The position numbers were made by a program, and so were the translations under genes. From Actinomycetota bacterium (GTDB lineage: Bacteria; Actinomycetota; UBA4738; HRBIN12): 64,000 nucleotides of DNA. Positions within the stretch are counted from its first letter, which is position 1, and every line of letters begins with the position of its first letter. The stretch lies in NCBI GenBank assembly GCA_040881665.1, contig JBBECT010000004.1, positions 117,782-181,781 on the forward strand, read 5' to 3'. Shown in pieces: positions 160-58,969 of the stretch. The notes under the pieces are model-generated. The model searched no databases. It was not told where the DNA came from and saw nothing but the letters and a program-made list of their open reading frames with translations.

Positions 160-1038
160 TTAGCGTGCCTGGATCGACAGCTCCTCCAGCATCCGGCGCT
201 GCCAGTCGACGGTGCGCTCGACCTGGTTGAAGGTGAACAGGTGGAGCGCCCGCACGTCGGCGTTCGCGTCGGCCAAGACCGGAGCGAGATCCTCCAGCAG
301 ACCGTCGGGGCGGTAGCCACCTTTCCGAACGAGGCGGCCGACCGCCCGACGGTTCTTGGACAGGTACCGGGCCGAGCCTCCGACGCCGATCTTCGTCGCG
401 ATCGACAGCAGCTTCGTCAGGTCGGCGACACCGGGCGTCCCCAGGTGCACGGGGAGCGCGATGCCCGAGGCCCGCAACCACTGGACCCACGACGCGATCG
501 CGGTCGGATCCAAACAGAGCTGGGTGGCGATGTAGTCCGCGTGCACCGACTTGTCGCGCAGCGCGGTGCCGAGCACGACCGCATCGATGTCCACGTGCCC
601 CTCGGGATAGCCGGGGATCCCGATCTCGCTCGGTCGCGGACCGGTCTCCTCGATCGCGCGCAGCAGGGCCAGCCCGTCGGGGAACCCGTCGGCGTCGATC
701 GGGTCCCCGCCGACGACGAAGACCGACGTGAGGCCGGCGACCGCGAGTCGCTGCAGCAGCTCGGCCAGATGCGCGCGATCGCGGATCATCCGGGCGGACA
801 GGTGCGGGATCGCGGGGTGGCCGACGGCGGCCATCTTCTCGGCCAGCTCGATCGTGGCCTCGATCCCTTTCGCCGGCGAGGCCGTCACCGTGACCGTGAC
901 GCCCGGGGGAAGGAACGCCGCCTGCTCACCGACGTCGGAGAGCGGGATCAGCTCGAACTTCGGATCCTCGATCAGGCGTCGCAGCGCCACACGTTCGACC
1001 TCGGAGAGCTTCGCGATCCGGGAGCGGCGCAGAGCCAT
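160..1038 (-). CDS. metF: 5,10-methylenetetrahydrofolate reductase (MetF family), 292 aa
   Basis: C-terminal 292 aa of track ORF 160..1944 reads as MTHFR. ATG (CAT on + strand) verified at 1036-1038. The stop abuts the start region of the upstream MttB-family gene, so this is the last gene of the minus-strand chain. Confidence 0.85.
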   Translation of the reverse strand: MALRRSRIAKLSEVERVALRRLIEDPKFELIPLSDVGEQAAFLPPGVTVTVTASPAKGIEATIELAEKMAAVGHPAIPHLSARMIRDRAHLAELLQRLAVAGLTSVFVVGGDPIDADGFPDGLALLRAIEETGPRPSEIGIPGYPEGHVDIDAVVLGTALRDKSVHADYIATQLCLDPTAIASWVQWLRASGIALPVHLGTPGVADLTKLLSIATKIGVGGSARYLSKNRRAVGRLVRKGGYRPDGLLEDLAPVLADANADVRALHLFTFNQVERTVDWQRRMLEELSIQAR

Positions 1039-2579
1039 CAGACGTTCGAGTCCGGGAAGCTCGCCTTCTTCTTCTCGATCCACTCGAGCAGCTCGCCGTC
1101 CTTCGCTTCGTCGATCGGCGGCGGCTCGTACTCGGCAAGCGTCTTCTTCCACAGTGCATTGGCACGCTCGGCGGCGTCCTTGGAGCCCTCGGCCTCCCAC
1201 TGCTCGAAGGAGTTGTTGTCGGCCACCCCCGAGCGGAAGAAAGCCGACTCGAAGTTCGCGAGCGTGTGCGCCGTCCCGAGGAAGTGCTGCCCGGGCCCGT
1301 TCTCGAGGATCGCGTCGATCGCCTGACCGTTCGGCGACAGGTCGACGCCGTTGGCGAACGCCGCCGCCATCCCGCACTGATCGTGGTCGAGCACGAACTT
1401 CTCGTACCCCATCGCGAGCCCGCCCTCGAGCCACCCGGCGGCGTGCAGCACGAAGTTCACCCCGCCGAGCATCGTGGGCTGAAACGTGTTCGCCGACTCG
1501 TAGGCAGCCTGCGCGTCGGGGAGCTTGGAGGCCGTGAGCGACCCTCCGCTGCGGAACGGTACGCCGAGGCGTCGGGCGAGCGCCGCCAGCGAATAGAGCA
1601 CGAGCGCGGGCTCGGGCGTTCCGAACGTCGGCGCGCCCGATTGCATCGACATCGACGACGCGAACGAGCCCATCACGACCGGCGCCCCCGGACGGAGGAG
1701 TTGGACGTAGGTCATCCCGGCCATCGCCTCGGCGAGCGTCTGGGCGACCGCGCCCGCGACGGTCGCGGGACTCATCGCGCCGGCGAGGATGAACGGGGTC
1801 ATGATCAGCGCCTGGTTCGCCTCGGCGTACGCCTTCGCCGCGCCGAGCATCGTCGAGTCCCACACGAGTGGCGAGTTCGCGTTCACCAGGCTCATGACGA
1901 CCGGATGATCCTCGAGGTACGCCGCGCCGAACAGGATCCTGCACATCTCCACGGTGTCCTGCGCGCGAAGGGGGTGGGTCACCGAGCCCATGAACGCCTT
2001 GTCCGAGTAGCGCATGTGCGCGTACACCATGTCGTAGTGGCGCTTGTTGACGGGCAGGTCCACGGGCTCGCAGACCGTCCCGCCCGAGTGGTGCAGGAAC
2101 GGCGCGGCGTACGCGAGCTTCACGAAGTTGCCGAAGTCCTCGATCGTTCCGTACCGGCGTCCCTGGTCAAGATCGTGCACGAACGGCGAGCCGTAGGCCG
2201 GAGCGAGCACGGTGTGCCTCCCGCCGACCTCCACGTTGTGCTCGGGGTTGCGCGCGTACTGCGTGAAGCTCGACGGTGCCGACGCCCGGATCGTCTCCCG
2301 GCACATCCCGGACGGGAAGCGGACACGTTCCCCGTCGACGTCGGCTCCCGCGCCCTTCAGCAGCTCCAGCGCATCGGGCGACTCACGGAACTCGATCCCC
2401 ACCTGTTCCAGGATCGTGTCGGCGTTGTGCTCCATCAGCTCGAGGCCCTCGGTGTCGAGCACCTCGAGCGGCTTGAGCGTTCGCGTGATGTAGGGGATCC
2501 GCTCGGCGGTGGTCGCCGCCCGCGCCGCTTGCCGTGCCGCCCGTCCTCCGCCGCGCCTTCGTCCGGTCGTCTCGCTCAT
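1038..2579 (-). CDS. MttB-superfamily methyltransferase without in-frame amber codon (non-pyrrolysine; glycine betaine/quaternary amine:corrinoid methyltransferase, MtgB-like), 513 aa
   Basis: C-terminal 513 aa of track ORF 1038..4499. ATG verified at 2577-2579. Uninterrupted reading frame with the TIM-barrel MttB fold. The start overlaps the upstream activase stop by 4 nt (ATGA). Confidence 0.8.
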   Translation of the reverse strand: MSETTGRRRGGGRAARQAARAATTAERIPYITRTLKPLEVLDTEGLELMEHNADTILEQVGIEFRESPDALELLKGAGADVDGERVRFPSGMCRETIRASAPSSFTQYARNPEHNVEVGGRHTVLAPAYGSPFVHDLDQGRRYGTIEDFGNFVKLAYAAPFLHHSGGTVCEPVDLPVNKRHYDMVYAHMRYSDKAFMGSVTHPLRAQDTVEMCRILFGAAYLEDHPVVMSLVNANSPLVWDSTMLGAAKAYAEANQALIMTPFILAGAMSPATVAGAVAQTLAEAMAGMTYVQLLRPGAPVVMGSFASSMSMQSGAPTFGTPEPALVLYSLAALARRLGVPFRSGGSLTASKLPDAQAAYESANTFQPTMLGGVNFVLHAAGWLEGGLAMGYEKFVLDHDQCGMAAAFANGVDLSPNGQAIDAILENGPGQHFLGTAHTLANFESAFFRSGVADNNSFEQWEAEGSKDAAERANALWKKTLAEYEPPPIDEAKDGELLEWIEKKKASFPDSNV

Positions 2580-4615
2580 GCGGTCTCGTCCTTTCCAGAG
2601 GTCGCATCGTCGGAGGCGGCGCGGCGCCGGGAGCGCCCACGTCGACCTCGGTCCGTCGTGGCACCCGTTGCGGTCCGCTCGGGCAAGGACACCGCGGTCC
2701 CCAAGCGCGCGTACGGATCGGTCGCGTGCGGGATGCCCATCGCGTTCACGAAATGCTCCTGGAACCTTGGTTCCACCGCCGTCTCGATCTTCTCGATCCG
2801 GCGGACGACGTCTTCGATCTCGGTCCGCGCCGAGCGGTTGAGCAACGCGATCCGCGCTCCCGTCCCGGCGGCGTTCCCCGCGGCGGTGACCCCGGACGGG
2901 TCGCAATCCGGAACCATCCCGAGGACCAGCGCATGCACCGGATCGATGTGCGCTCCGAACGCGCCCGCCAGCCGGATCCGGTCGACGGTTTCGATCTGCA
3001 GATGATCCATCAGCAGGCGGCACCCGGCCTCGAGCGCGGCCTTCGCGAGCTGGATCGCGCGCACGTCGTTCTGGGTGATCACCAACCGCGGCTCGCCGTC
3101 GTGGAGCACGTAGGAGAACGTCCGTCCGTCCGGGACGATCCGCTCCGAACGCCCGGCGAGCGCGCCGTCGATCGTCCCGTCCGCGGTGAGGATCCGCGCG
3201 AGGAACATCTCGGCCATCACCTCGATGATCCCCGACCCGCACACGCCGGTCACCGACGCGCCCTTGAAGCCCGGCTCGTCCGACCAAGCGTTGCGACCGA
3301 TCACGCGGAACCGCGGCTCGAGCGTCTCGGGATCGATCCGGACCCGCTCGACCGCGCCGGGCGCGGCGCGCTGGCCGCAGCTGATCTGCGCTCCTTCGAA
3401 CGCGGGACCGGTCGGGCTCGATGCGGCGAGCAGTCGGTCGCGGTTGCCGAGCACGATCTCGGCGTTCGTCCCGACGTCGACGAGCAGCTCGACCCCCGCC
3501 CGGAGGTACGGACCTTCGGAGAGCACCATGCCCGCCGTGTCCGCGCCCACGTGCCCGGCGATGCACGGCAGGACGTAGACGCGGGCGCCGGGGTGGACCG
3601 CAAGGTCGAGCTCCTCGGCCCGCAGCCGCACCGCCTCGTCGACGGCGAGCGCGAACGGCGCTCCGCCCAGCTCGGTCGGATCGAGGCCGAGCAGCAGATG
3701 GTGCATGATCGGGTTCCCGACGATCGTGAGCTCCAGGATGTCGGTCCCGTCGATCTCCGCGGTGGCCGCGAGCTCGGCGAGGAGCTGGTTGAGGCACTCC
3801 CGGACGACGGCCGTCAGGTCGGCCTCCGAACCGGGGTTCATCATCACGTACGACACCCGGCTCATCAGATCCTCGCCGAAGCGGATCTGCGGGTTCATCG
3901 ATCCCGCCGATGCGAGCACCTCGCCGGTCGTCAGGTCGCACAGGTGCCCCGCAACCGTCGTCGAACCGACGTCGAACGCGACGCCGACCGCACGGTCGTG
4001 GAAACCCGGCCAGATCCCGGTGATCGTCGCCCCGTCGTGGACGGCGACCGTCACGGCCCACTTCCCCTCGCGCAGCGTGCGTTGGAGGTCGCGGAGCACC
4101 TGGAGATCGGCGGTGAGCCCGGTGAGCGCCCACTCCGTCTCGAGCGCCTCCTCGAGCCGCCGCAGATCGCCGGAGGACTCTCCGAGGTCGGGTTCCCGGA
4201 CCTCGACGTAGTACAGGCGCACGACCGGGTCGATCTCGATCGGGTGCGCGTCCGCCTCCTTGCGCACGACCTGGCGATGGACCTGGCTGTCGGCGGGAAC
4301 GTCGACCACGACGTCGCCGAGCACCTCGCAGGCGCACCCGAGCCGGCGGCCGGACGCGAGCCCCTGCTCCCGCGCGTAGGTCTCCTCGGTCCGCGTGAAC
4401 GCGTTCAAGTGATCGGCGGCGGAGGTGATCTGGTGCTTCGCGTGCTCCCCTTCGCTCACCGTGATCTGGCACCGGCCGCAGATCCCCCGTCCGCCGCACA
4501 CCGAGTCGAGGTCGACCCCGAGCGAACGGGCCGCATCGAGGAGGTTCGTCCCCGCCGGGAACCGGCCCCGCTTGCCCGACGGGGTGAAGACGACGAGCGG
4601 CTCGGCCGTGCTCAC
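2576..4615 (-). CDS. RACE/RamA-type ATP-dependent reductive activase of corrinoid proteins (N-terminal plant-type 2Fe-2S ferredoxin + ASKHA ATPase, COG3894/DUF4445-like), about 680 aa
   Basis: A CGGRGICGRCQ 2Fe-2S motif lies near the N-terminus and a long ASKHA-like ATPase body follows. Proposed start is GTG at 4613-4615 (VSTAEPLVVF...), which overlaps the stop of the upstream pterin-binding gene by 4 nt. The alternative start is the upstream ATG at 4717. Confidence 0.75.
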   Translation of the reverse strand: MSTAEPLVVFTPSGKRGRFPAGTNLLDAARSLGVDLDSVCGGRGICGRCQITVSEGEHAKHQITSAADHLNAFTRTEETYAREQGLASGRRLGCACEVLGDVVVDVPADSQVHRQVVRKEADAHPIEIDPVVRLYYVEVREPDLGESSGDLRRLEEALETEWALTGLTADLQVLRDLQRTLREGKWAVTVAVHDGATITGIWPGFHDRAVGVAFDVGSTTVAGHLCDLTTGEVLASAGSMNPQIRFGEDLMSRVSYVMMNPGSEADLTAVVRECLNQLLAELAATAEIDGTDILELTIVGNPIMHHLLLGLDPTELGGAPFALAVDEAVRLRAEELDLAVHPGARVYVLPCIAGHVGADTAGMVLSEGPYLRAGVELLVDVGTNAEIVLGNRDRLLAASSPTGPAFEGAQISCGQRAAPGAVERVRIDPETLEPRFRVIGRNAWSDEPGFKGASVTGVCGSGIIEVMAEMFLARILTADGTIDGALAGRSERIVPDGRTFSYVLHDGEPRLVITQNDVRAIQLAKAALEAGCRLLMDHLQIETVDRIRLAGAFGAHIDPVHALVLGMVPDCDPSGVTAAGNAAGTGARIALLNRSARTEIEDVVRRIEKIETAVEPRFQEHFVNAMGIPHATDPYARLGTAVSLPERTATGATTDRGRRGRSRRRAASDDATSGKDETA

Positions 4616-5535
4616 GGTGGCGCCGGGTCGGTACCCGCTCCCCGGGCGCGCCGGCGAGCGCCGCGCTCCCGACGACCGCCGCCGTCCGCCGAGGGCTCCC
4701 GGTAGGTGCGGATCCACGCGATGCAGTCGGCGTCGTTGCCCATCATCACGTCGGCGGCCATCACGGCCTGGCGGATCTCTGGATGCAGGGGACTCGTGAT
4801 CGCCGAGGTCAGCCCCGAAGCGATCGCCATCGACAGGAACGCCGCGTTCAGACCACCACGGTTCGGCAGGCCGAAGCTGACGTTCGACGCACCGCAGGTG
4901 GAGTTCACGCCGAGCTCGGTCCGCAACCGCCGGACGAGCTCGAACACCTGCCGGCCCGCGGTGCGCATCGCCCCGATCGGCATCACGAGAGGGTCGACGA
5001 CGATGTCCTCGCGGCCGATGCCGTGATCGGCGGCACGCTCGACGATCCGCTTCGCGACGGCGAATCGCTCGTTCGGGTCCTGGGAGATGCCGGTCTCGTC
5101 GTTCGTGATCGCGACGACGGCCGCCCCGTGTCTCGCCACGAGCGGCAGGACGGCCTCGAGACGCTCTTCCTCGCCCGTCACCGAGTTCACGAGCGCCTTG
5201 CCCTGATAGGCGGACAGGCCGGCCTCGAGCGCAGCGACGATCGACGAGTCGATCGAGAGCGGGACGTCGGTCAGGGACTGCACGAGCTTGATCGTCTCCG
5301 CCAGGATCGCCGGCTCGTCCGCGAGCGGGATCCCCGCGTTGACGTCGAGCATCTGCGCGCCCGCCTCGACCTGGGCGTTCGTGTCGACGATCACGGTGGA
5401 GAAGTCGCCGGCCTTCATCTGCTCGGCGAGCGTCTTGCGGCCGGTCGGGTTGATCCGCTCCCCGATCACCACGAACGGACGGTCGAACCCCAGGACGACC
5501 TCCTTCGTCGCCGAGCTGAGGACGGTCTCGGTCAT
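4612..5535 (-). CDS. pterin-binding methyltransferase (methylcorrinoid:tetrahydrofolate methyltransferase, MtgA/MtrH/AcsE-like), 307 aa
   Basis: Pterin-binding (DHPS-like) domain. ATG verified at 5533-5535, with a GGAGG ribosome-binding site 5-9 nt upstream on the minus strand. Start M is residue 129 of track ORF 4612..5919. Confidence 0.8.
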   Translation of the reverse strand: MTETVLSSATKEVVLGFDRPFVVIGERINPTGRKTLAEQMKAGDFSTVIVDTNAQVEAGAQMLDVNAGIPLADEPAILAETIKLVQSLTDVPLSIDSSIVAALEAGLSAYQGKALVNSVTGEEERLEAVLPLVARHGAAVVAITNDETGISQDPNERFAVAKRIVERAADHGIGREDIVVDPLVMPIGAMRTAGRQVFELVRRLRTELGVNSTCGASNVSFGLPNRGGLNAAFLSMAIASGLTSAITSPLHPEIRQAVMAADVMMGNDADCIAWIRTYREPSADGGGRRERGARRRARGAGTDPAPP

Positions 5536-5843
5536 GCGGGGCCTCCGTCGGCGCGCCGGCCGCCGCTGCGGATCAGGGCGCGCAGCGCCTCGTCGGGATG
5601 CGCGGCCTCGATCCGTTCCGCCTCCGCATGCGCCTCGGCCTCGAGGTCGTCTCCGCACGGGCGGGCGTCGCGCGCCCACTCGGCCAGATACTCGTCGGTG
5701 CCGATCAGTCCGATGCTCGTCGCGGCGGCGTCGATCGCCTCCTGGAACCGGTCGGTCAACTGGACCCGCGCCGACTCCCTCCCCTGCTTTGCCGTGACCT
5801 GCGCGGGGATGTCGCGCCAGCGGATCACCGTGAGCTCGGCCAT
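5532..5843 (-). CDS. hypothetical protein, 103 aa, acidic and soluble, translationally coupled between the corrinoid protein and the pterin methyltransferase
   Basis: Normal amino-acid composition, not Arg/Pro-rich. It starts 5 nt after the corrinoid-protein stop and its stop overlaps the start of the downstream gene by 4 nt. No recognisable motif. Confidence 0.55.
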   Translation of the reverse strand: MAELTVIRWRDIPAQVTAKQGRESARVQLTDRFQEAIDAAATSIGLIGTDEYLAEWARDARPCGDDLEAEAHAEAERIEAAHPDEALRALIRSGGRRADGGPA

Positions 5844-5848: not shown

Positions 5849-6547
5849 TCAGGCCCCCGCCGCCGCGCGGCGCGCGAGCACGAGCGCCTGCGCCGTCTCG
5901 GCGGCGATCGCGGCGTCACGGCAGTAGGCGTCGGCGCCCACGGTCTTGCCGAACTCCTCGTTCAGCGGCGCGCCACCCACCAGAACGATGTAGTCCTCGC
6001 GGAGGCCCTTGTCGACGAGCTCGTCGATCACGACCTTCATATACGGCATCGTCGTCGTCAGCAGCGCCGACATCCCGAGGATGTCGGGCTCGTGTTCCTC
6101 GAGCGCCTCGAGGTAGTTCTCCACCGGATTGTTGATGCCGAGATCGACGACCTCGAACCCGGCGCCTTCGAGCATCATCGACACGAGGTTCTTCCCGATG
6201 TCGTGGATGTCGCCCTTGACGGTGCCGATCACGACCTTGCCGACCCGTTCCACACCGGTCTCGGCGAGCAGCGGCCGGAGGATCTCCATCCCGGCCTTCA
6301 TCGCGTTCGCGGCCAGCAGCACCTCCGGGACGAACAGGATGCCGTCGCGGAAGTCGATCCCGACGATCCGCATCCCATCGACCAGGGCGTCGTTCAGCAC
6401 CCGGTCGGCCGCCCATCCGCGACCCAGGAGGATGTTCGTTCCCTCGACGATCTCGTCGGCCATGCCGTCGTAGAGATCGTCGTGCATCTGCTTGGTGAGC
6501 TCGTCGTCGGGGAGGGTCGACAGGTCCAGTTCCTGCTCGTCGCTCAT
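5849..6547 (-). CDS. cobalamin (B12)-binding corrinoid protein (MtgC/MtbC/MtmC-like), 232 aa
   Basis: The B12-binding DxHxxG motif is present as DIHDIGKN, with a Rossmann-like B12-binding domain and an N-terminal cap helix domain. Confidence 0.85.
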   Translation of the reverse strand: MSDEQELDLSTLPDDELTKQMHDDLYDGMADEIVEGTNILLGRGWAADRVLNDALVDGMRIVGIDFRDGILFVPEVLLAANAMKAGMEILRPLLAETGVERVGKVVIGTVKGDIHDIGKNLVSMMLEGAGFEVVDLGINNPVENYLEALEEHEPDILGMSALLTTTMPYMKVVIDELVDKGLREDYIVLVGGAPLNEEFGKTVGADAYCRDAAIAAETAQALVLARRAAAGA

Positions 6548-6556: not shown

Positions 6557-9016
6557 CTAGCTCCTCGGGCGTTCGTTCTTGGGGTCGAACAAGGGATCGG
6601 CCGCGACCGTCGCGGCATACCGCTCGTCGAAGTACTCGATCCGGACGGGGGTTCCCTCGACGGCCAGCTCGACCGGCAGGTACCCGTAGGCGATCCCTCG
6701 ACCGATCGAGTAGCCGTGGTTGGCCGAGGTGACGTAGGAGACCACCGCTCCCTGTGCGTCGCGGATCGGCTCCTTGCCGAGCACGACCGCGGACGGATCG
6801 TCGAGGGTCATACACGCGAGCTTGTGGCTCGAGCCACCTCGGGCGATCCGCTCGAGCGCGTCGCGGCCCTGGAACCCGCCCTTGTCCATCCGCACCGCGA
6901 ACCCGAGGCCGGCCTCGAACGGATCGTGCTCGGTGTGGATGTCCTGACCCCAGAGGCGGTAGCCCTTCTCCAGGCGCAGGGAGTCGAACGCCCCGAGGCC
7001 CGCCGCCACGATCCCGTGCTCACGCCCCGCGTCGAAGAGCAGCTCCCAGGCCCGCGCGCCCATCTCGAACGGGCCGTACACCTCCCATCCGAGCTCACCG
7101 ACGTAGGAGATCCGCTGGGCGAACACGGGCACCTCGCCCAGGTGGATCGGCCGTCCGGTGAGGTACCCGAACGCCTCGTTCGACACGTCGTCGGTCGTCA
7201 CCGCCGACAGCACGTCGCGTGCACGCGGCCCCCAGAGTCCGAAGCAGAACGAGCTCGTCGTGCGATCGACGATCCCGACCCGCTCACCGTCGCGGGCCTG
7301 CGCGCGCAGCCACGCGAGGTCGTGCATCGCCGATCCGCCACCGGTCACGACCTGGAACAGGTCCTCGGCCAGCCGCGTCACGGTCAGGTCGCACCGGATG
7401 CCACCCCGGGGCGTGAGCATCGCCGTGTAGATCACCGACCCGACGGCCCGGTCGATCCGGTTCGCGCAGATCCGCTCCAGGAATGCGAGCGCGCCGGCAC
7501 CACCGACCGCGAACTTTGCGAACGGCGTGATGTCGAACAGCGCGACACGTTCGCGGGTCGCCAGGTGTTCGGCGCCCTCGATCGGCGACCAGTGCTGCGC
7601 TGCCCATCCCGATCGCCGCTCCCACGGGTCGCCACGGAGCAGGTCCCCGTTGGACGCGAACCATTGGGGGCGCTCCCACCCCGCTCCCACCACGAACTCC
7701 GCGTCGAGCGCGGCGTGCGCCTCGTAGGCGGGGGTCAGGCGGAGCCTGCGTGGGCGCTCCATCTGCTGGCGGGGATGGATGATGTCGTAGACCTCGCGGT
7801 AGTTCTGCGCACCGCGTTCGCGGACGTACGGCGGGGTCGTCATGTACGGGTAGAACCGGTTCGCGTCGGCCTCGGCGAGGTCCATGCTCGGCTCGCCGGT
7901 CGCGATCCACTCGGCGACCTGACGGCCCATGCCGCCTCCCTGCGTGACCCAGACCGCTTCGCAGATCCAGAATCCGCGCACGTCGGTCGACTCGCCGACG
8001 ATCGAGCCCATGTCGGGCGTGAACGAGAACATCCCGTTGATCGCGGTGGACAGGTCGATCCGATCCGTCAGGGCCGGCATGATCCGGGTCGATTCGCGTT
8101 CGCACTCGGAGAAGTGCTCCGGCGTGAACGGCATCACCGACGGCATAGGACCGGGCTCGGACGGGTGGCGGATGTCTTCCGGGTCGGTGAGCACGGGTTC
8201 GTGGCGATAGTTGCCCAGCGCGTAGCGGTCCTCGCGCTGGCGGTAGTACAGCGAGACGTCCTGGTGACGCAGGATCGGGTGAGCAATCTCGTCTGTCTGA
8301 CCCGCGAGCTCGGGGAGCGGCTCGGTCCACACGAGCTGGTGTTGCACGGCCGCGAGCGGGATCGGCACCCCCGCCATCGCCCCGAGCCGCGGCCCCCAGA
8401 TCCCCGCGCACACGAGCACCTGCTCGCACTCGACGTCGCCCCGGTCGGTCCGCACACCGTGGACGTGTCCCTCTCGGATGTCGAACCCGGTGACCGTCAC
8501 GCCACCCTCGAACGCGGCGCCCCTGGCCTCCGCCTTCCGCGCGTACGCGGCGGCGAGACGAACGGCCTTCGCAGCTCCGTCGGAGGGGACGAAGAGCGAG
8601 CCGTGGATCGTCGACGGGTCGAGCAGAGGGATCTTCGCGGCGGTCTCGCCGGGGTCCAACAGCTCGGCACCCTCGATCCCGTAGGCGCGGGCGAACCCGA
8701 GACGGCGCTTCAGCTCCTCCATGCGCTCGTGTGTAGTCGCGATCTCGATCCCGCCGACGCCGTACCAGCCCGGCTGCCCGTCGAGAGCGAGCTCGGCGTA
8801 CTGGGCGACCGTGTCCTGCGCGATCCGGCACATCGTCCGGGATCCGTTCGTCTGGAACACCAGTCCCGGGGCGTGTGAGGTCGACCCGCCGGTCTCGAAA
8901 AGCGGTCCCTGATCGAGAACGAGGACATCCGTCACGCCGAGTTCGGCCAGGTGGCGGGCGGCGCTCGTGCCCACGATCCCCGCTCCCACGATCACCAGTT
9001 GGGCCCGATCGCGCAT
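6557..9016 (-). CDS. dimethylglycine oxidase/dehydrogenase (FAD-dependent oxidase domain fused to a GcvT-like folate-binding aminomethyltransferase domain), 820 aa
   Basis: N-terminal dinucleotide-binding motif VIVGAGIVGTSAARHLAELG and a C-terminal GcvT-like domain. ATG verified at 9014-9016. Start M is residue 39 of track ORF 6557..9130. Confidence 0.8.
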   Translation of the reverse strand: MRDRAQLVIVGAGIVGTSAARHLAELGVTDVLVLDQGPLFETGGSTSHAPGLVFQTNGSRTMCRIAQDTVAQYAELALDGQPGWYGVGGIEIATTHERMEELKRRLGFARAYGIEGAELLDPGETAAKIPLLDPSTIHGSLFVPSDGAAKAVRLAAAYARKAEARGAAFEGGVTVTGFDIREGHVHGVRTDRGDVECEQVLVCAGIWGPRLGAMAGVPIPLAAVQHQLVWTEPLPELAGQTDEIAHPILRHQDVSLYYRQREDRYALGNYRHEPVLTDPEDIRHPSEPGPMPSVMPFTPEHFSECERESTRIMPALTDRIDLSTAINGMFSFTPDMGSIVGESTDVRGFWICEAVWVTQGGGMGRQVAEWIATGEPSMDLAEADANRFYPYMTTPPYVRERGAQNYREVYDIIHPRQQMERPRRLRLTPAYEAHAALDAEFVVGAGWERPQWFASNGDLLRGDPWERRSGWAAQHWSPIEGAEHLATRERVALFDITPFAKFAVGGAGALAFLERICANRIDRAVGSVIYTAMLTPRGGIRCDLTVTRLAEDLFQVVTGGGSAMHDLAWLRAQARDGERVGIVDRTTSSFCFGLWGPRARDVLSAVTTDDVSNEAFGYLTGRPIHLGEVPVFAQRISYVGELGWEVYGPFEMGARAWELLFDAGREHGIVAAGLGAFDSLRLEKGYRLWGQDIHTEHDPFEAGLGFAVRMDKGGFQGRDALERIARGGSSHKLACMTLDDPSAVVLGKEPIRDAQGAVVSYVTSANHGYSIGRGIAYGYLPVELAVEGTPVRIEYFDERYAATVAADPLFDPKNERPRS

Positions 9017-9050
9017 CCGGTTCCCCGCGCTCCTTAAGCTTCTCGCCCGT

Positions 9051-9070
9051 GCGACGGCGTACGCCGTCGC
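9051..9070. promoter_or_regulatory. 20-bp perfect palindrome GCGACGGCGTACGCCGTCGC in the ALDH-DMG oxidase intercistronic gap
   Basis: Seen in the sequence. On the minus-strand transcript it would form an 8-9 bp GC stem, but no U-tract follows, so it is more likely an operator or an RNA processing/stability hairpin than an intrinsic terminator. Confidence 0.35.
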
Positions 9071-9131
9071 CGGCACCGATGGTCGGCCCGCGTGGTTGCG
9101 CTGACAACCCACCGGTTGCGACCTCAGCAAC

Positions 9132-10586
9132 TCAGCTCTCGCCGAGGTTGAGCACCACGGTCTTGAGCTCGGTCAGGCGCTCCATCGAGTAGCGCCCTCC
9201 GACACGGCCGATACCGCTCTTGGAGCCCGCGCCGCCGCCGAAGGGAAGGTGGGACTCCCAGTAGTTGGTGCCCTCGTTCACGTTCACCCACCCGGTGCGC
9301 ACCCGCTCGGCAAACCGTAGCCCCCGCGCCAGGTCGGCGGTGAAGATCGCCGACAGCAGCCCGTACTCCGAGTCGTCGACGAGCGCCACCGCCTCGTCCT
9401 CGCTGCGGATCGTCGAGACCGGAACAACCGGACCGAACGTCTCCTCGCGCGCCACCTGCATCCGGTCGGTCACGCCGTCGAGGACCGTCGCCTCGAAGAA
9501 CAGCTCGCTGCCGTGCTCGGGCGCACGACGGCCGCCGGTGACGACGGAGGCACCTGCCTCGACCGCTTCGGCCACGTGCCGCTCGGTCTTGTCGGCGACA
9601 CCGGCGTTGTTCACCGGACCCATCGTGGTCGCGTCGTCCAAGGGATCGCCGAGGTGGATCTTCTCCGCGACGGCGGCGGAAAGCTTGCCGACGTACACGT
9701 CGTGGACGGTTTCGTGGACGAGGATCCGTTCACCCGCCGTGCAGCTCTGTCCGGCGTTCAGGAAGCACGCCGTCAGCGTCGCCTCGACCGCCGCGTCGAT
9801 GTCGCCGTCCTCCATCACGACGAGCGGTCCGTTGCCACCCATCTCCAGCAGCAGATCCTTGCCGGCCGCGCGCTCCGCGACGCGATGACCGGTCGCGATC
9901 GAGCCGATGAACCCGATCGCGCTCGTCCCGGGATTCGCGGCGACCTCGTCGCCGACGACCGCGCCCTCGCCGGTCACCATGTTGAAGACGCCCGCCGGCA
10001 GGTCGGCCTCGACGATGCACTCGGCGAAGCGAACGGCGCACACCGACGTCGAGGGCGCGGGCACCCAGACGATCGCGTTCCCGTAGGCGAGCGCCGGGGC
10101 CAGGATCTCCCCCGGCATGGTGTACGGCCAGTTCCACGGACTGATGATCCCGACGACGCCGCGCGGCACGCGGTAGAGCAGCACGCGCTTGTTCGCATCG
10201 AACGACGGCGGCATGATCCCGTCCATTCGGATCGCGTCGGCCGCGGCCATCTCGAAGTAGCCGAGTAGTTCCTCGACCTCGTCGTTGGCCTCGGCGGCCA
10301 GGGGCTTGCCCTGATCGATCGCGAGCGTGCGCGCGAGCTCGATGCGGTTGGCGTCGATCGCCGCGGCGATCCGTCGCATCCCTGCCGCCCGGTCGAAGGC
10401 CGACATCCCGGCCCACCCACGACGCGCACGCTGGGCAGCGCCGATCGCGCGCTGCACGTCCCCGCGCGTGCCGCTGGGCACGGTTGCGACCACCTCGCCC
10501 GAGCGCGGGCTCGTCGCTTCGAGCGTCGCGCCGTCGGACGCGTCGGCCCACGTTCCGTCGATGTACAGCTTCAGGTTCTCGCTCAT
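9132..10586 (-). CDS. NAD(P)-dependent aldehyde dehydrogenase, candidate betaine-aldehyde dehydrogenase by context, 484 aa
   Basis: ALDH superfamily with catalytic Cys in QSCTAG and an ELGGNGP motif. ATG verified at 10584-10586, with GGGGAG upstream. Confidence 0.85.
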   Translation of the reverse strand: MSENLKLYIDGTWADASDGATLEATSPRSGEVVATVPSGTRGDVQRAIGAAQRARRGWAGMSAFDRAAGMRRIAAAIDANRIELARTLAIDQGKPLAAEANDEVEELLGYFEMAAADAIRMDGIMPPSFDANKRVLLYRVPRGVVGIISPWNWPYTMPGEILAPALAYGNAIVWVPAPSTSVCAVRFAECIVEADLPAGVFNMVTGEGAVVGDEVAANPGTSAIGFIGSIATGHRVAERAAGKDLLLEMGGNGPLVVMEDGDIDAAVEATLTACFLNAGQSCTAGERILVHETVHDVYVGKLSAAVAEKIHLGDPLDDATTMGPVNNAGVADKTERHVAEAVEAGASVVTGGRRAPEHGSELFFEATVLDGVTDRMQVAREETFGPVVPVSTIRSEDEAVALVDDSEYGLLSAIFTADLARGLRFAERVRTGWVNVNEGTNYWESHLPFGGGAGSKSGIGRVGGRYSMERLTELKTVVLNLGES

Positions 10587-10679
10587 CGCTCCCCGTCCCC
10601 GCAACGGCGACGGGGGCGGCCCATGGACCGCCCCCGTCTCACCGCCGTGCTTCCCGTGTTCGGACCGTCCTGTTCGTGC

Positions 10680-11690
10680 TCAGGCCGCCGGCATCCAGGA
10701 GTCGACGACGTCCTGGTTGGCGTCGATCCAGGTCTGCGCGGCCTCCTCGGGATCCGCTCCCTCCTGCAGCTCGAGGGCGACCGAGTTCTGGTCCTCTTCG
10801 GTCCACTGGAAGTTGGAGAGGAACTCGAACGCCGCCGGGTCCTTCTCCGCGAAGTCCACGCTGAACGCCTTGTAGAGCACGTCGTCGGCGTAGTCGCAGT
10901 CATAGCCCGCCGCCTCGTCCGGATCGTCGAGCGCGATCTGCTCGCACTCCTCATCGAACTCCGGCAACTCGACCTCGACGAGGTCGTACTTCGCATTGGC
11001 CCACTGCGGGGTCCACCAGTACATGACGATCGGCTCTTCGTTCTTCACGGCGTTGTCGAGCGCCGACAGCGACGCGGTCTCCGATCCGGAGTACACGACC
11101 TCGAGGTCCAGTCCCAGACTCTCGATGATCGCCTCGTCGAAGATCGAGTACGTCGTGTCCGCACCGAGGAAGCGGCCCTTGTCGCCCGTCTCCGCCGTTG
11201 AGAACGCGTCGGCCTCGGTGAAGCCCTCGTACGTGGCGTACTCGGGGGTATCCTCGACGACGTAGGACGGCACGAACCATCCGATGTTGCCGGTGATGCC
11301 GAGCTCGCCTCCGTCGACGACGGTGCCGGCCTTCTCGATGTACTGCGACCGGTCCTTCGCATGGCCGGAGGGCCAGACCTCGAGCGTCGCGTCGACATCA
11401 CCCGAGGCCATCGCGGGGAACTGCGCGGATTCGTTGATCTCCTGGAGCTCGACCTCGCAACCCATCTCCTCCTGCATCACCTGTTGGACGACGACCGCGT
11501 TCGCCTCGGCCCCGATCCACGGGTTCACGGCGATCACGATCGGGTCGTCGGTGGAGCACTGCGCGACGCTCGCCGTGTCGCCGTCGCCTCCGGTGTCCTC
11601 GGGTGTGTCCTCGACGTCGCTACACGCGGCGCCCACGAGCGCGAGTCCCGCCACGCAGGCGACGAGCGTCAGCCACTTCGAACCCTTCAT
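10680..11690 (-). CDS. glycine betaine/proline betaine ABC transporter substrate-binding lipoprotein (OpuAC/ProX family)
   Basis: Signal peptide with a lipobox (LVGAAC S) followed by an OpuAC-like body. ATG verified at 11688-11690, with a GGAGGGAGG ribosome-binding site. Confidence 0.8.
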   Translation of the reverse strand: MKGSKWLTLVACVAGLALVGAACSDVEDTPEDTGGDGDTASVAQCSTDDPIVIAVNPWIGAEANAVVVQQVMQEEMGCEVELQEINESAQFPAMASGDVDATLEVWPSGHAKDRSQYIEKAGTVVDGGELGITGNIGWFVPSYVVEDTPEYATYEGFTEADAFSTAETGDKGRFLGADTTYSIFDEAIIESLGLDLEVVYSGSETASLSALDNAVKNEEPIVMYWWTPQWANAKYDLVEVELPEFDEECEQIALDDPDEAAGYDCDYADDVLYKAFSVDFAEKDPAAFEFLSNFQWTEEDQNSVALELQEGADPEEAAQTWIDANQDVVDSWMPAA

Positions 11691-11787
11691 GCGTCCTCCC
11701 TCCGTCGGCACGGCCGCTGCCGCTGCCGCTGCCTCACCCCGGCCGTCGCCACCGCTCCGGCCGCTGCTTCCTGGTACGCCATTCGAG

Positions 11788-13878
11788 TCATCTCGAGCTC
11801 TGATCGCCCGATCCGCCCGATCCGCCCGATCCGTTCGCTCCGTTCGCTCCGCCCACGATCGCGCGCAGCTTGGTCCACGGCGCGAACCCCATCTCCCCGA
11901 CCGGCCCGCGCAGGGTGCGCGGCGCCGATCCCATCGCCTGCGTGATGCGATCGAGCACGATCGCCAGCAGCAGGATGCACGTACCGGCGACCACCCCGCG
12001 GCCGATCTGCTGCTTGCCGAGCGCGAACACCACCTCTTGTCCCAGCCCGGCCGCGCCGATCAGCCCGGCGATGATCACGACGGACAGGACCATCATGATC
12101 GTCTGGTTGATCCCGAGCAGGATCGTCGGTCGCGCGAGCGGCAGTTCGACCTTCGCGAGCATCTGCTTCGAGGTCGCACCGTACGAGCGACCGGCCTCGG
12201 TGATCTCGGCCGGAACCTGGCGGATCCCGAGGTTGGTCAGCCGCACGCCCACGGGCAGCGCGTAGATCAGCGACGCGATGATCGCCGGGACGCGTCCGGG
12301 CTCGAAGAGGAGCAGCACCGGCACCAGGTAGACGAATGCGGGCATCGTCTGCATCGCGTCGAGCACGGGCCGTGACCACCGCTCGAACCGGTCGCTGCGC
12401 GCGGCGAGGATGCCGAGCGGGATCGCGAACGCCGCGGTGATCGCGACCGCGACGAGCACCTGGGTAAGGGTCCCCATCGACAGATCCCACATCCCGAGGA
12501 ACCCGAGCGCGGCGATGCACGCGAAGCACCCGATCGCGAGCTTGATCCCGGACACCCGCCACGCGAGCAGGGCGAACGCACCCGCGACCATCCACCACGG
12601 GACGCCGACGAACAGCGCCTCCAGCGGATCGAGGACGTAGATGATGAGGAAGTCGTTGATCGCGCCCGTGACCCCGGCAAGGTTGGTCTGGGACCACTCG
12701 ACGATCGCGTTCGCCGGCGTGGCGACCGAGGTCTCGAGCGCCTCGGGGAACACCTGCTGGCGGAGCACCTCCCGGCCGATCAGCACCGCCGCGACGGTCA
12801 CCACGACCGCTGCCACCACTTGCATCCGCCGGGTCACCACGAGTCCGCCGATCCGCAGGGGGGGCGTCGTGCGGCGATCCCGGTCGCTCCAGGCGGTCGT
12901 CACGCGATCGAGCACGATCGCCATCACGACGATCGCGATCCCGCCGTTGAGCGCCTCCCCGACGTTGAAGTCCTGGAGACCCTCGATCACCGCCTGACCG
13001 AGTCCCCCGGCGCCGATGAACGCGGCGATCACGACGAGGCCGAGCGCCATCATGATCGTCTGGTTCACCCCGAGCATGATCGAGGGCTTGGCCATCGGGA
13101 TCTGCACCGACCGCAGCTTCTGCCGTTCGGTCGCACCGAAGGAATCGGCCACCTCGAGCGAGGTCTCCGGAACGTTGCGGATCCCGAGCGCGGTCAGCCG
13201 GATCGCGGGCGGCAGGGCGAACGCGAGCGTGGCGAGCAACGCCGGCGGGGCCCCGACCCCGAACAGCAGCACGAACGGCAACAGGTAGGAGTAGGCGGGA
13301 ATCGTCTGCATCGCGTCGAGGATCGGCCGGAGGGCCCGCTCGACGCGGGGACGCCGCCCCGCCCAGATCCCCAACGGGATCCCGACCAGTACGGCGAGTG
13401 AGACCGACACGATGATCAGGGCGAGCGTCTCGAGGCTCGCCTCCCACACGCCGAGCAGCCCGAAGCTCGCGACGCCGAGGCCGGCGAGCAGCGCCATCTT
13501 CCAGCCCGCGAGCACCCCCGCGAGCGCTCCCGCCCCGACCACGAGGCCGAGCCAGGTCATCCGCTCCAACGCGGCCACCGTGCTGTCGATCGCCGCCTCG
13601 ACCGCGTCCGAGATCGGCGTCAGGAACAGCGTGAACAACGGGCTGGTGCGGGAGTTCTCCACCGTCCAGTCGCGGAACGCATCCAGTGGAGCGGTGACGT
13701 CGATCACCAACGACTCGGGGAACCCCGCGCGCAGCCATACGAGCCCGATCACCGCGACCACGACGGCGACCACCGCCCAAGCGATGCGACGCGGCCAGGG
13801 GCTCGCCGCTCGATGGAACACCGCCGGCGCGACCTCGCCCACCACGGGGGACGGCGTCCGCGGCGGAGCGATCGCCAT
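11788..13878 (-). CDS. glycine betaine ABC transporter permease, tandem-fused double ProW/OpuAB domain, 696 aa
   Basis: Two consecutive ABC-2 type permease domains each carrying the EAA-like loop. The C-terminal low-complexity tail [17 protein letters not shown] is encoded by tandem 9-nt repeats. Confidence 0.85.
11802..11855 (-). repeat. in-frame degenerate 9-nt tandem repeats (about 6 units: gatcgcccg atccgcccg atccgcccg atccgttcg ctccgttcg ctccgccca) encoding the [15 protein letters not shown] tail of the fused ProW permease
   Basis: Seen in the sequence at the 3' end of CDS 11788-13878. Confidence 0.5.
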
Positions 13879-13881: not shown

Positions 13882-14895
13882 CTAGCGCTCCTCGACCATC
13901 GCGCCGAGCACCCGCGACCGATCCACGATGCCGAGCACCCGCTCGTCCTCGACCACGCGCAGCGTGAGGTCTTCGTCGACGACGAGCGGCAGCAGCTCCT
14001 GCACGACGGTCGTGGGTGCGACATCCGGTCCGTAGCGGCGTCCGTCCGTTGACGGCGGCGCCACCATGATCGAACGGGCCGTGAGCACGTGGGCGCGCGG
14101 AACGTCGCGGACGAAGTCGGCAACGTAGTCGTCGGCGGGAGCGGACACGACCTCCTCGGGGGTTCCGACCTGGACGAACCCGCCGTCTTTCATGATCGCG
14201 ATCCGGTCGCCGAGCTTCAGCGCCTCCATCAGGTCGTGGGTGATGAAGACCATCGTCTTGCGGAGCTCGCGCTGCAGGCGGATCACCTCCTCCTGCATGT
14301 CGCGGCGGATCAGCGGATCCAGGGCACTGAACGGCTCGTCGAACAGCATGATCTCCGGATCGGTCGCGAGCGCTCGGGCGAGCCCGACGCGCTGCTGCAT
14401 CCCACCGGAGAGCTCGTCGGGGTAGGACTCGCCCCAGCCTCCGAGTCCGACCACCTCGAGAACCTCGTTCGCGCGCGCGGTGCGGGCGTCTTTGTCCACC
14501 CCTTGCACCTCGAGGCCGAACGCGGCGTTGTCGACGATCCGCCGGTGCGGGAACAGACCGAAGTGCTGGAACACCATGCTGACCCTCGTCCGGCGGAGCT
14601 CCCGCAGACGATCTGCGCTCAGCTGCAGGATGTCGTCGCCGTCGATCGCCACGCTGCCGGCGGTCGGCTCGATCAGCCGTGAGATGCATCGCACGAGCGT
14701 GGACTTCCCGGAGCCCGACAGCCCCATCACGACGAAGACCTCGCCGGTCCCGACGTCGAACGAGACGTCCCGGACGGCGGCGACACAGCCGGTCTTCTCC
14801 AGCAGTTCGGCGCGGGCGAGGTTCGCGTCCGGCGAGCCGATGATCCGTTCGGCCTTCGGACCGTAGACCTTCCACACGTCACGACACGACAGCAT
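13882..14895 (-). CDS. glycine betaine/proline ABC transporter ATP-binding protein (ProV/OpuAA) with C-terminal CBS domains
   Basis: Walker A motif GLSGSGKST and signature LSGGMQQRV. The N-terminus VWKVYG aligns with ProV LYKIFG when the start is ATG at 14893-14895. The track's alternative start is GTG at 14961. Confidence 0.85.
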
Positions 14896-15036
14896 CAGGT
14901 CGGCAGGGGGATCGGTCCGTTCGTTCCCGCTAGACACCCTGGTCGAAGATACTGGGAGCACCTCCTCCCGTGCGCAAGGCAGGGGTTGCGGTCATCGCAA
15001 CCATCCGCGCACTCGTCAACCGGACGCCGCGGCCAG

Positions 15037-16701
15037 TCACGAGGCCTGCTGATGCCGGTAGAACCCGACCTCCTCCGGGGGAAGGGGTGTGTTGCCGAGC
15101 AGCAGGTCGGCGGCCTTCTCCGCGACCATCATCACGGGGGCGTAGATGTTGCCGTTCGTGACGTAGGGCATCACCGAGGCGTCGACCACCGACAGACCCT
15201 CGGTGCCCCGAACCCGCATCGTCAGCGGATCGACGACGGCGAGCTCGTCGGTTCCCATCTTCGCCGTGCACGAAGGGTGCAACGCCGTCTCGCCCTCCCG
15301 CGCCACCCACTCGAGGATCTGCTCGTCGGTCTCGACCGCCGGCCCCGGCGACAGCTCGCCGCCGTCGAACGGAGCGAACGCCGGGCGGCCCAGGATGTCG
15401 CGCGCGACGTCGATCGCCTCGACCCACTCGCGGCGATCCTGGTCGGTCGACAGGTAGTTGAACCGGAGCGCCGGATGCGTCCACGGATCACGGCTGGTGA
15501 TCTTCACCGTCCCCCGCGCATCGGAGTACATCGGGCCGATGTGCACCTGGTAGCCGTGGTCCCCGGCGGGAGCCGACCCGTCGTAGCGAACCGCGACCGG
15601 GAGGAAGTGGAACATCAGGTTTGGGTAGGCCACCTCGTCGTTGCTCCGTACGAACCCTCCGGCCTCGAAGTGGTTCGTCGCGCCGAGACCCGAGCGGAAC
15701 ACGAGCCACTGGAACCCGATCCACGGGCGGTTGCGCCACTTCAGACCCGGTGCGACCGACACCGGCTGGGTACAGGCGTGCTGGATGTAGACCTCGAGGT
15801 GGTCCTGAAGGTTCTCCCCGACGCCCGGCAGGTCCGCGACCATGTCGACCCCGAGCGCGCCGAGCTCGTCCGCTGCGCCGATCCCCGACAACTGCAGCAG
15901 CTGTGGCGAGTTGATCGCCCCTCCGCACAGCACGACCTCCCCGGCGCGAACCCGCTTCGGCGAGGTCCCCAACCCGTGGACGTATTCGACGCCGACGGCA
16001 CGCGACCCCTCGAACAGGATCCGTGTGACGAACGCACGGGTGCTGACCTCGAGGTTGGGACGATGCCGGACCGGGTGGAGGTAGGCGCGTGCGGCCGAGA
16101 GACGACGGCCATGGTGCACGTTCCGGTCGAAGGGCGCGAACCCCTCCTGGCGGTAGCCGTTGACGTCCTCGGTCAGGGGATACCCCGCCTGCTGCACGGC
16201 CTCGAAGAACGCCCCGAACAGGGGGCTCGTCGCCGGACCGCGCTCGAGCGCGAGCGGGCCCGCGTGGCCGCGGAACGGATCCTCGAGCTCGGCCGCGAGG
16301 CAGGACTCCATCCGCTTGAAGTACGGCAGGCAGTGCGCGTAGTCCCATGTCTCCATCCCCGGATCCGCGGCCCACCGCTGATAGTCCAACGGGTTCCCGC
16401 GCTGGAAGATCATGCCGTTGATGCTGCTCGAGCCGCCGAGAACCTTCCCCCGCGCGTGGTAGATCCGGCGCCCGTTCATGCGTGGCTCGGGCTCGGACTC
16501 GTACTTCCAGTCGTAGAACCGGCTCCCGATCGGGAACGTGAGCGCCGCGGGCATATGGATGAAGACGTCCCAGAGATAGTCGGGCCGGCCCGCTTCGAGC
16601 ACCAACACCCGGTTCGAGGCGTCGGCGCTCAGTCGGTTCCCGAGCGCGCTCCCCGCCGAGCCGCCGCCCACGATCACGAAGTCGTACTGCGTCGCAGTCA
16701 C
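15037..16701 (-). CDS. betA: choline dehydrogenase (GMC oxidoreductase)
   Basis: FAD motif [18 protein letters not shown] and extensive collinear similarity to E. coli BetA along the whole length. GTG start at 16701 with a GGAAGGGG ribosome-binding site 5 nt upstream. Confidence 0.9.
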
Positions 16702-16727
16702 CTGCGCCCCTTCCGGTGATGCATGTC

Positions 16728-16757
16728 TCCGACGCCTCGGAGCGTTCCGACGCCCGG
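16728..16757. promoter_or_regulatory. direct repeat TCCGACGCC(T/C)GG x2 at 18-nt spacing upstream of betA
   Basis: tccgacgcctcgg at 16728-16740 and tccgacgcccgg at 16746-16757, 27-45 nt upstream (minus strand) of the betA GTG start. No regulator gene is visible inside the operon. Confidence 0.3.
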
Positions 16758-16823
16758 CGCCGGAGGCCGAACGCGGGCGATGCTACAGGAGGGCCGGCGA
16801 GCGCGGGACCGGCCGGTTGCGCA

Positions 16824-30116: not shown

Positions 30117-30158
30117 TGAGATGAAGCAGGCAAGCTGAACGGACGAGGAGGCACCCGG

Positions 30159-33383: not shown

Positions 33384-33444
33384 CGGGGTGCCTCCTCTTG
33401 GTCTGGTTCCCACGGCGTTCTTCCGCACTCCGAGACTCCAAAGC

Positions 33445-43280: not shown

Positions 43281-43530
43281 TCCCGCGCGGACGCGTTCGC
43301 GCAGGTCACGTCCGTTGCTTCGGCCGGGGGTCCCGCGGGCAGGAGAGGTGCGCAGGTCGAACGGTCTCCCCCGGCTCCGCCCGAACCGCTAGGCCGCCTC
43401 ACCTGCACAAACCCCCCGCTCACCCCTGAACGGCCCGTCAAGGCGGGCTCGGAGGGGGCCGATACGAATCACAGCACGCACGAGGCGTCGTGTGCGCTGC
43501 GACGTACCGGAAGAGGGAAAAGGCGACTGC

Positions 43531-58961: not shown

Positions 58962-58969
58962 GAGGCGCC

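Follow-up and report, generated by a model that had tools for sequence, protein, structure and literature searches.

The window analysed here is a 64,000-nucleotide stretch of contig JBBECT010000004.1 (assembly GCA_040881665.1), which comes from an Actinomycetota bacterium of a soil-type lineage of metagenome-assembled genomes (MAGs), akin to Gaiellaceae and Thermoleophilia MAGs. On its minus strand lies a gene (2576..4615, stop codon TGA at 2576-2578) coding for a protein of 679 residues. This protein is very probably a reductive activator of corrinoid-dependent enzymes (RACE), translated from the GTG at 4615 and encoded within a glycine-betaine demethylation operon. The open reading frame (ORF) present on the minus strand is longer, covering 2576..4717 and 713 codons. 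The window has a G+C content of about 70%, and each of its six frames contains long ORFs, for example at 1038..4499 on the minus strand and at 2534..4705 on the plus strand; a length of 713 codons is therefore by itself no proof of a gene.

The ORF encodes a full-length activase of the RACE/RACo type, recognised by its Pfam domains, by its match to RACo (AcsV of Carboxydothermus hydrogenoformans; PDB codes 3ZYY and 4C1N), by its NCBI protein entry and by Foldseek. Four Pfam domains are found in the canonical order along the protein: Fer2 (2.9e-07, 30.8 bits against a cut-off of 21), RACo_linker (PF17650; 4.1e-29, 100.7 bits), Raco_middle (PF17651; 4.6e-49, 166.6 bits) and RACo_C_ter, the ASKHA domain formerly called DUF4445 (PF14574; E 1.1e-87, 293.8 bits). 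The linker and middle domain matches are far above their cut-offs. The [2Fe-2S] ferredoxin domain, delimited by the Fer2 match and by the alignment to residues 2-89 of RACo, comprises residues ~4-107 (4295..4606). It contains the only CX5CX2C motif of the protein, CGGRGICGRC at residues 40-49 (in the numbering of the 679-residue form), as the first-pass annotation of this DNA had noticed. The three cysteines of this motif, C40, C46 and C49 (4469-4498), and a fourth one, C94 (4334-4336), line up with those of RACo and are invariant in 121 of 121 sequences, i.e., 120 homologues and RACo itself. The linker region corresponds to residues 122-207 (3995..4252). It is followed by the middle domain, residues 211-366 (3518..3985), with the phosphate-1 motif DVGSTT at residue 215, which is present in 120 of 120 homologues, and by the ASKHA ATPase domain, residues 376-632 (2720..3490), with DVGTNAE at 380, GVCGSG at 457 and AGAFG at 550. 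These four motifs are kept in 112-120 of the 120 homologues and align to their RACo equivalents. The last residues, 633-679 (2579..2719), form a disordered Arg-rich tail, '...TDRGRRGRSRRRAAS...'.

The similarity to RACo extends to the fold. A phmmer search against the PDB aligned residues 38-665 of the long ORF to residues 2-622 of the RACo chain (3ZYY; E 9.4e-92). The AlphaFold2 model of the 679-residue form (mean predicted local distance difference test (pLDDT) score of 77, predicted template modelling score of 0.67) retrieved 3ZYY and 4C1N first in Foldseek (E 6e-50 to 1e-42, template modelling score up to 0.82), with generic ASKHA sugar kinases far behind (~1e-7). The protein thus carries every defining feature of the RACE family that can be tested from sequence. 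The first-pass annotation had proposed a RACE-type (COG3894) activase rather than a RamA, and had named two observations that would speak against it: no ASKHA/DUF4445 profile match and a cluster motif proving incomplete on alignment. Neither was made, given the match to PF14574 and the four aligned cysteines.

RamA of Methanosarcina (TIGR04270) has a homologous ASKHA core and performs ATP-dependent Co(II) to Co(I) reduction on methylamine corrinoid proteins. It carries two [4Fe-4S] clusters instead of an N-terminal [2Fe-2S] domain. The possibility that the window activase is of this archaeal type, with [4Fe-4S] clusters, is extremely small: TIGR04270 does match the protein (7.1e-33), but only over the middle and ASKHA domains (residues 245-661 of the query) and with 113.7 bits against a cut-off of 500. 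No CxxCxxC motif is found anywhere in its sequence, the sole cluster motif being the N-terminal CX5CX2C with C94. The RamA-type assignment was rejected on these two grounds.

The start codon of the gene was ambiguous. The first-pass annotation had set a GTG start at 4615, with a 4-nt overlap with the upstream gene, beside a longer form starting from an ATG at 4717 through a 34-residue Arg/Gly/Ser-rich extension. The overlap is as described, the GTG (4615-4613) lying over the TGA (4614-4612) of the upstream mtgA/mtgD gene to form a GTGA junction (4612..4615, minus strand) suited to translational coupling. The length (34 residues) and composition of the extension (4616..4717, minus strand) are also as described, with G7 R7 P5 A4 S4. 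The codon at 4717 is a GTG and not an ATG. Ahead of the ferredoxin fold, 4717 and 4615 are the only two in-frame start codons; the next one after 4615 is V39, the use of which would remove the first strand and helix of the ferredoxin domain. The N-terminal alignment suggested as a check in the first-pass annotation places residue 2 of RACo at residue 4 of the 679-residue form, and position 2 of the NCBIfam AcsV model aligns to residue 8 of the same form.

Comparison with homologues points to the same start. In 120 homologues that are 73-100% identical and whose gene calls come from several pipelines, the first cysteine is at position 33-43 in nearly all cases, mostly at 37-41; in one homologue it is at 49. 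Two of these homologues are truncated at the N-terminus, and none has its first cysteine near position 74, where it would be expected with the extension. A scan of species-representative genomes gave 80 related loci with activases 63-77% identical to that of the window. In these loci, a start codon is found 37-54 codons before the first cysteine, with an NTGA overlap with the upstream stop in about 30 of the 80. In several loci, an in-frame stop is found 40-50 codons ahead of the cysteine, and where the distance is as short as 40-44 codons (L050, L060, L045, L053 and L067) no extension is possible. The upstream frames of related high-GC loci are otherwise uninformative, some being open over >400 codons, and only such early in-frame stops and a codon-change test were used. 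For this test, the 84 nt upstream of the start were compared with L083, the nearest relative with a distinct sequence (90% identical at the protein level). The changes are 13 synonymous and 3 non-synonymous in the frame of the upstream mtgA, against 0 synonymous and 16 non-synonymous in the frame of the extension. In L083, the extension frame is also interrupted by two stops, and no start codon separates the GTGA start of this locus from the in-frame stop upstream of it. L083 has 72 extra nt in the tail, and the gene upstream is longer by 24 codons (331 vs 307 aa), which is consistent with an insertion that stays in frame with that gene. Furthermore, NCBI annotates an identical protein of 679 aa with the 4-nt overlap, under the name 'ASKHA domain-containing protein', in GCA_040904315.1 and GCA_040877085.1.

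A real product of 713 residues, initiated at GTG 4717 and carrying a functional Arg/Gly/Ser-rich extension, is therefore very improbable, and this form is effectively refuted. Its frame stays open downstream of 4717, where a valid start codon is found, and the G+C content at third codon positions of the 102-nt stretch is nearly the same in the three frames (0.82, 0.82 and 0.85), a measure that does not discriminate at this G+C content. Against this stand the lack of the extension in every homologue, the codon changes and stops of L083, the NCBI gene call, and the RACo alignment, which begins only at residue 38 of the long form. In addition, the disputed stretch belongs to the gene of the upstream methyltransferase, in which it codes for the C-terminal tail 'DGGGRRERGARRRARGAGTDPAPP', a tail whose Arg-rich character is conserved through the 75 loci listed. 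The Arg/Gly/Ser-rich extension is an out-of-frame reading of this CGN/GGN-rich tail of MtgA. One result weighs against the start at 4615: a search for a Shine-Dalgarno sequence found none convincing at the usual spacing before GTG 4615, nor before GTG 4717. The start call therefore rests on comparative evidence, and termination-reinitiation coupling gives the best account of how translation begins at 4615. Since six independent lines of such evidence agree, we take GTG 4615 as the true start.

The activase gene is embedded in an operon, as the first-pass annotation had stated. All genes of this tightly coupled operon are on the minus strand. From mtgC onwards they follow in the order mtgC, PF13769, mtgA, RACE, mttB and metF-like, joined by 4-nt or 1-nt overlaps, the activase gene being located between mtgA and mttB, and mtgC two genes upstream of mtgA. 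The mtgC gene (5849..6547) codes for a corrinoid protein with a B12-binding_2 cap, a B12-binding domain and the His-on motif DIHDIG, identified with Pfam and with an MtgC-like NCBIfam model. It is followed by a gene for a small protein of 103 aa (5532..5843) belonging to PF13769 ('Virulence_fact'; Pfam 2.1e-22), which is ATGA-coupled to mtgA. The mtgA/mtgD gene (4612..5535) codes for a methyl-tetrahydrofolate (THF):corrinoid methyltransferase of 307 aa (Pterin_bind; PRK07535 with 350 bits against a cut-off of 259). Downstream of the activase are a gene for an MttB-superfamily methyltransferase (MtgB-like, 513 aa, 1038..2579; PF06253, 4.4e-224), ATGA-coupled to the activase stop, and a metF2-like gene for a methylenetetrahydrofolate reductase (MTHFR)-like protein (292 aa, 160..1038; PF02219), the TGATG junction of which has a 1-nt overlap with mttB. 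From the PF13769 gene to the metF-like gene, the successive junctions are ATGA, GTGA, ATGA and TGATG, and the NCBI gene calls agree with them.

Upstream of mtgC, the operon carries further genes of the proposed choline and betaine pathway. The first encodes a dimethylglycine oxidase/dehydrogenase-like protein with the Pfam domains DAO, FAO_M, GCV_T and GCV_T_C (6557..9130; 819 aa at NCBI, with a start near 9016). The next ones are assigned by domain matches: an aldehyde dehydrogenase (9132-10604), an OpuAC binding protein (10680-11711), an ABC permease (11788-13878) and an ABC ATPase (13882-14991). The last one is the choline dehydrogenase BetA (15037-16782), which passes its equivalog cut-off with 821.7 against 732.1.

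The end of the activase gene is constrained by its downstream neighbour. Its last codons hold a Shine-Dalgarno-like AAGGA/GGAG for mttB and overlap the mttB ATG in the ATGA junction. Actinobacterial homologues show a near-universal C-terminal ending '...ERSTx', to which 'GKDETA' corresponds in the window (2579-2600). A protein function for this ending was considered and set aside, as its codons overlap the Shine-Dalgarno sequence and the start codon of mttB, the next gene; these translation signals probably account for the conservation.

The gene neighbourhood is conserved. The 80 loci of the genome scan come from Actinomycetota MAGs (Gaiellaceae, Thermoleophilia, 'Actinomycetes'), from Alpha-, Beta- and Gammaproteobacteria and from Binatia, and their cultured carriers include Dongia mobilis, Labrys, Taklimakanibacter, Kiloniella and Nitrincola. 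In 75 of 83 loci, belonging to several phyla, the gene directly preceding that of the activase encodes an MtgA homologue, and MtgC is present in 44 of the 83. The presence of mttB and the MTHFR gene directly downstream of the activase is the Actinomycetota arrangement. A tblastn search of plasmid and replicon records found orthologues with 58-66% identity in Azoarcus sp. KH32C, Paracoccus aminovorans and Sinorhizobium meliloti, all annotated as 'ASKHA domain-containing protein'. The window activase is 61-67% identical to the Paracoccus, Azoarcus, Dongia and Labrys proteins, and 58% identical to that of S. meliloti (UIJ93763.1). The S. meliloti locus comprises an MttB-family protein, a cobalamin-binding protein, DUF1638, a 'virulence factor', an MTHFR, a methyl-THF cobalamin methyltransferase and the ASKHA protein, and is the cluster discussed by Mausz et al. 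(PMC12478193).

The small PF13769 protein recurs in 60 of the 83 related loci, including that of S. meliloti, and a literature search for PF13769 found no paper mentioning it in the library searched. It is likely an unrecognised component of the aerobic MtgBCD system. Another recurrent gene is that of DUF1638 (PF07796), which is present in 47 related loci, Gaiellaceae included, between mtgC and PF13769 (e.g., L010 4097-4807 and L028 2292-2954). DUF1638 co-occurs with the RamA-like protein across Alphaproteobacteria, behaves alike in fitness data, and was proposed to be a second B12-reactivation factor (PMC5764234).

Several proteins of the operon have highly charged termini. All three presumed partners of MtgC bear conserved poly-Arg termini, namely the activase tail (2579-2719), the MtgA tail (4615-4686) and the N-terminus of MttB (2514-2564), and MtgC itself has an acidic N-terminus (6443-6547). 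The activase tail extends 29-58 residues beyond the RACo C-terminal domain and contains a run of three or more arginines in 61 of 83 loci. It ends in '...GRRRRRRG' in proteobacterial examples and in 'DRGRRGRSRRRAAS' in the window, where a pLDDT of about 30 over residues 650-679 of the AlphaFold2 model predicts disorder. The tail is retained in a locus with 50% G+C, and is absent from RACo, from the Acetoanaerobium homologue and from a haloarchaeal homologue. Similarly, C-terminal MtgA/D tails of the 'GRRGGREGRRRR' type recur through the 75 loci listed, as read by eye, and are retained in a locus with 43% G+C. The N-terminus of MttB is Arg-rich in 27 of 27 loci and in PDB 4YYC, but not in MtgB of D. 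hafniense. The N-terminal 35 residues of MtgC have a net charge of -8 to -17 in 44 of 44 loci. This charge pattern spans Actinomycetota and Alpha-, Beta- and Gammaproteobacteria. Speculatively, it could be an electrostatic docking code, in which the poly-Arg termini of RACE, MtgA/D and MttB would tether these proteins to the acidic MtgC and form, with PF13769, a metabolon keeping Co(I) turnover and repair fast enough in oxic cells; we consider this idea rather unlikely to be correct as it stands.

The probable role of the activase can be described on the basis of what is known for its relatives. RACE ATPases convert Co(II) corrinoid proteins into their Co(I) form using ATP, by means of an ASKHA core and of a ferredoxin domain that is flexibly attached and holds a [2Fe-2S] cluster (PMC7317905). 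RACo associates selectively with the Co(II) state of its partner, the uphill transfer of the electron being set off by ATP (PMC4934906), and RamQ reduces the corrinoid protein of MttB-superfamily systems in vitro (PMC8604678). By homology, the window activase should catalyse such an ATP-dependent reduction of Co(II) to Co(I). Translation of the activase is probably coupled to the termination of mtgA/D via the GTGA overlap. In the mechanism drawn from RACo, the O-demethylase activating enzymes and RamQ, the N-terminal [2Fe-2S] cluster, bound by C40, C46, C49 and C94, would take an electron from a cellular donor, and the middle and ASKHA domains would bind the inactive Co(II) form of MtgC. ATP binding or hydrolysis in the ASKHA domain would then power the uphill electron transfer to cobalt, which would yield the Co(I) supernucleophile. 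Co(I)-MtgC would be methylated from glycine betaine by the MttB-family enzyme, MtgA/D would transfer the methyl group from MtgC to THF, and the resulting methyl-THF would be oxidised by the MetF-like enzyme. The operon as a whole would thereby convert choline into betaine aldehyde, glycine betaine, dimethylglycine and onwards.

Some observations weigh against this interpretation. The function of the window activase, as that of its Actinomycetota orthologues, is a prediction made from sequence. Its score lies below the AcsV cut-off, so no curated equivalog names it. Ser398 of RACo, which ligates the Co(II) of the partner corrinoid (PMC4934906), aligns to Pro401 (3412-3414) in 'AASSPTGPAFEGA', a motif invariant in 120 of 120 homologues; therefore, the details of partner recognition may differ from those of the complex between RACo and its corrinoid iron-sulfur protein (CoFeSP). 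DUF1638 was not detected in the 64-kb window by tblastn with two DUF1638 proteins (best E 0.71), and the operons of the closest relatives (L001, L003, L004, L009 and L081-L083) lack it as well. Finally, four glycine-betaine-binding residues were defined for D. hafniense MtgB (PMC13080624), and the MttB homologue keeps only three of them, Y97, R312 and H348, with a glycine aligned to F356. Because of this replacement, the substrate assignment leans mainly on the operon context, from which glycine betaine is the likely substrate. Beside the proline of the activase, two serine residues directly precede Pro401 in the same motif.

The MttB homologue matches PDB 4YYC (E 4e-213) and D. hafniense MtgB (9YCE/2QNE; ~1e-118, 3e-118 for 9YCE). 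Four positions before the F356 site, it exhibits a Trp aligned to Ile352 of D. hafniense MtgB ('GWLEGGL' vs 'GILQYFM'), and PDB 4YYC also has 'GWLEGGL'. The aromatic cage of the aerobic-clade MttB proteins may be built differently.

A different role for the activase could be to serve, chiefly or additionally, a split B12-dependent methionine synthase made of MtgC, MtgD and a homocysteine-binding MtgE, and thus to have a housekeeping function. MtgC and MtgD of Ruegeria are needed both to make methionine and to demethylate glycine betaine (PMC12478193), a Phaeobacter mutant of the ferredoxin+DUF4445 protein is a methionine auxotroph when grown aerobically (PMC5764234), and the window genes are homologous to the Phaeobacter/Ruegeria system. 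On the other hand, no homocysteine S-methyltransferase, MtgE or MetH-type gene is found among the ORFs scanned in the window, and the activase is translationally coupled within a dedicated choline/betaine catabolic operon. This role has less than even chances, and activation of MtgC for glycine-betaine demethylation remains the preferred function.

The premise of the first-pass annotation that the source organism is an aerobe is reasonable, with evidence that is indirect. Oxygen-linked genes of the window code for a Rieske oxygenase, a luciferase-like monooxygenase, a flavin amine oxidase and the dimethylglycine oxidase-like protein. Orthologous clusters are present in cultured Sinorhizobium, Paracoccus, Dongia and Labrys, which are aerobes or facultative anaerobes. 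An oxic lifestyle is thus suggested, short of direct proof. The Rieske/ring-hydroxylating oxygenase alpha subunit (30120-31307, plus strand) has GbcA, the glycine betaine monooxygenase, as its best NCBIfam match (183.7 against a cut-off of 670), and a second betaine-aldehyde-dehydrogenase-like gene (31926-33503, minus strand) has 545.9 bits against a cut-off of 668.6. These two genes may constitute a second, oxygen-dependent quaternary-amine route in the region. In its distal part, the window also contains two large PAS-GGDEF-EAL proteins and a GAF histidine kinase (43393-45789 and 45790-47139 on the plus strand, 56363-59791 on the minus strand), which are unrelated to the operon.

Among characterised activases, RACo is the best structural match of the window activase, with the same four-part architecture, the CX5CX2C motif with a distal Cys, and the nucleotide motifs. 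The two proteins are only 31-33% identical, and RACo does not have the 47-residue Arg-rich disordered C-terminal tail. Their contexts are also different, as RACo acts on CoFeSP in the Wood-Ljungdahl pathway, whereas the presumed partner of the window activase is a Rossmann-type His-on MtgC (DIHDIG) in betaine catabolism. An AcsV/RACo orthologue activating CoFeSP of the Wood-Ljungdahl pathway would account for the best NCBIfam match (NF040756, AcsV, 7.8e-119) and the best PDB match, but is hardly conceivable here: the 397.8 bits obtained with NF040756 are far under its cut-off of 800, no genes for carbon monoxide dehydrogenase/acetyl-CoA synthase (CODH/ACS) or CoFeSP occur among the window ORFs scanned, the CdhD match of the pterin-binding gene is under its cut-off, and the conserved neighbours are an MtgC-type corrinoid protein, MttB and MtgA. 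The AcsV equivalog assignment was rejected on the basis of the score, of the lack of CODH/ACS context and of the replacement of Ser398 by Pro.

RamQ of Eubacterium limosum and the O-demethylase activators of Acetobacterium are bacterial RACE activases for MttB-superfamily or other three-component corrinoid methyltransferases that transfer methyl groups to THF, and they reduce Co(II) corrinoid proteins in vitro in a reaction that depends on ATP and Ti(III) (PMC8604678, PMC6739815). They come from strict anaerobes, and the one anaerobe homologue inspected, from Acetoanaerobium (31% identity), is devoid of the poly-Arg tail. The RACE family has a published definition and mechanism (PMC7317905, PMC4934906), and the current understanding of RACE proteins is unchanged by the present analysis.

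The nearest functional relatives of the window activase are the 'RamA-like' ferredoxin+DUF4445 proteins of aerobic Alphaproteobacteria, P. inhibens PGA1_c15200, R. pomeroyi SPO2041 and S. meliloti UIJ93763.1, which have the same domains; PGA1_c15200 and SPO2041, like RamQ above, were likened to it by their published description and not by sequence. The ferredoxin+DUF4445 protein is needed for B12 reactivation in aerobic Phaeobacter (PMC5764234), and the 'RamA' SPO2041 is induced with MtgBCD on glycine betaine in Ruegeria (PMC12478193). In these relatives as in the window, the activase is associated with mtgC, mtgD (mtgA), mttB, metF-like and PF13769 genes and bears a poly-Arg C-terminal tail. 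The window differs by its phylum (an Actinomycetota MAG), by the absence of the DUF1638 gene, by its single overlapping operon, and by the location of mttB directly downstream of the activase, which among the related loci is seen only in those of Actinomycetota. The exact 679-residue protein (P0001) is already present in NCBI with the correct start. The aerobic MtgBCD system with its activase has been published (PMC5764234, PMC12478193), Actinomycetota account for ~5% of marine mtgC transcripts according to Mausz et al. (PMC12478193), and a 2026 preprint on Rhizobiaceae contains nothing on the activase. Compared with these systems, the window contributes a case from Actinomycetota to the cobalamin-dependent demethylation of glycine betaine that has recently been recognised in oxic habitats. 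It also provides a gene model corrected to 679 aa from GTG 4615, in which the plausibility of the longer ORF is explained by the shadow of an Arg-rich tail. The persistence of an oxygen-sensitive Co(I) cycle in aerobes may find its explanation in the poly-Arg termini paired with the acidic one of MtgC, in the conserved PF13769 gene and in the loss of DUF1638. In this lineage, a single translationally coupled operon holds the complete pathway, repair enzyme included.

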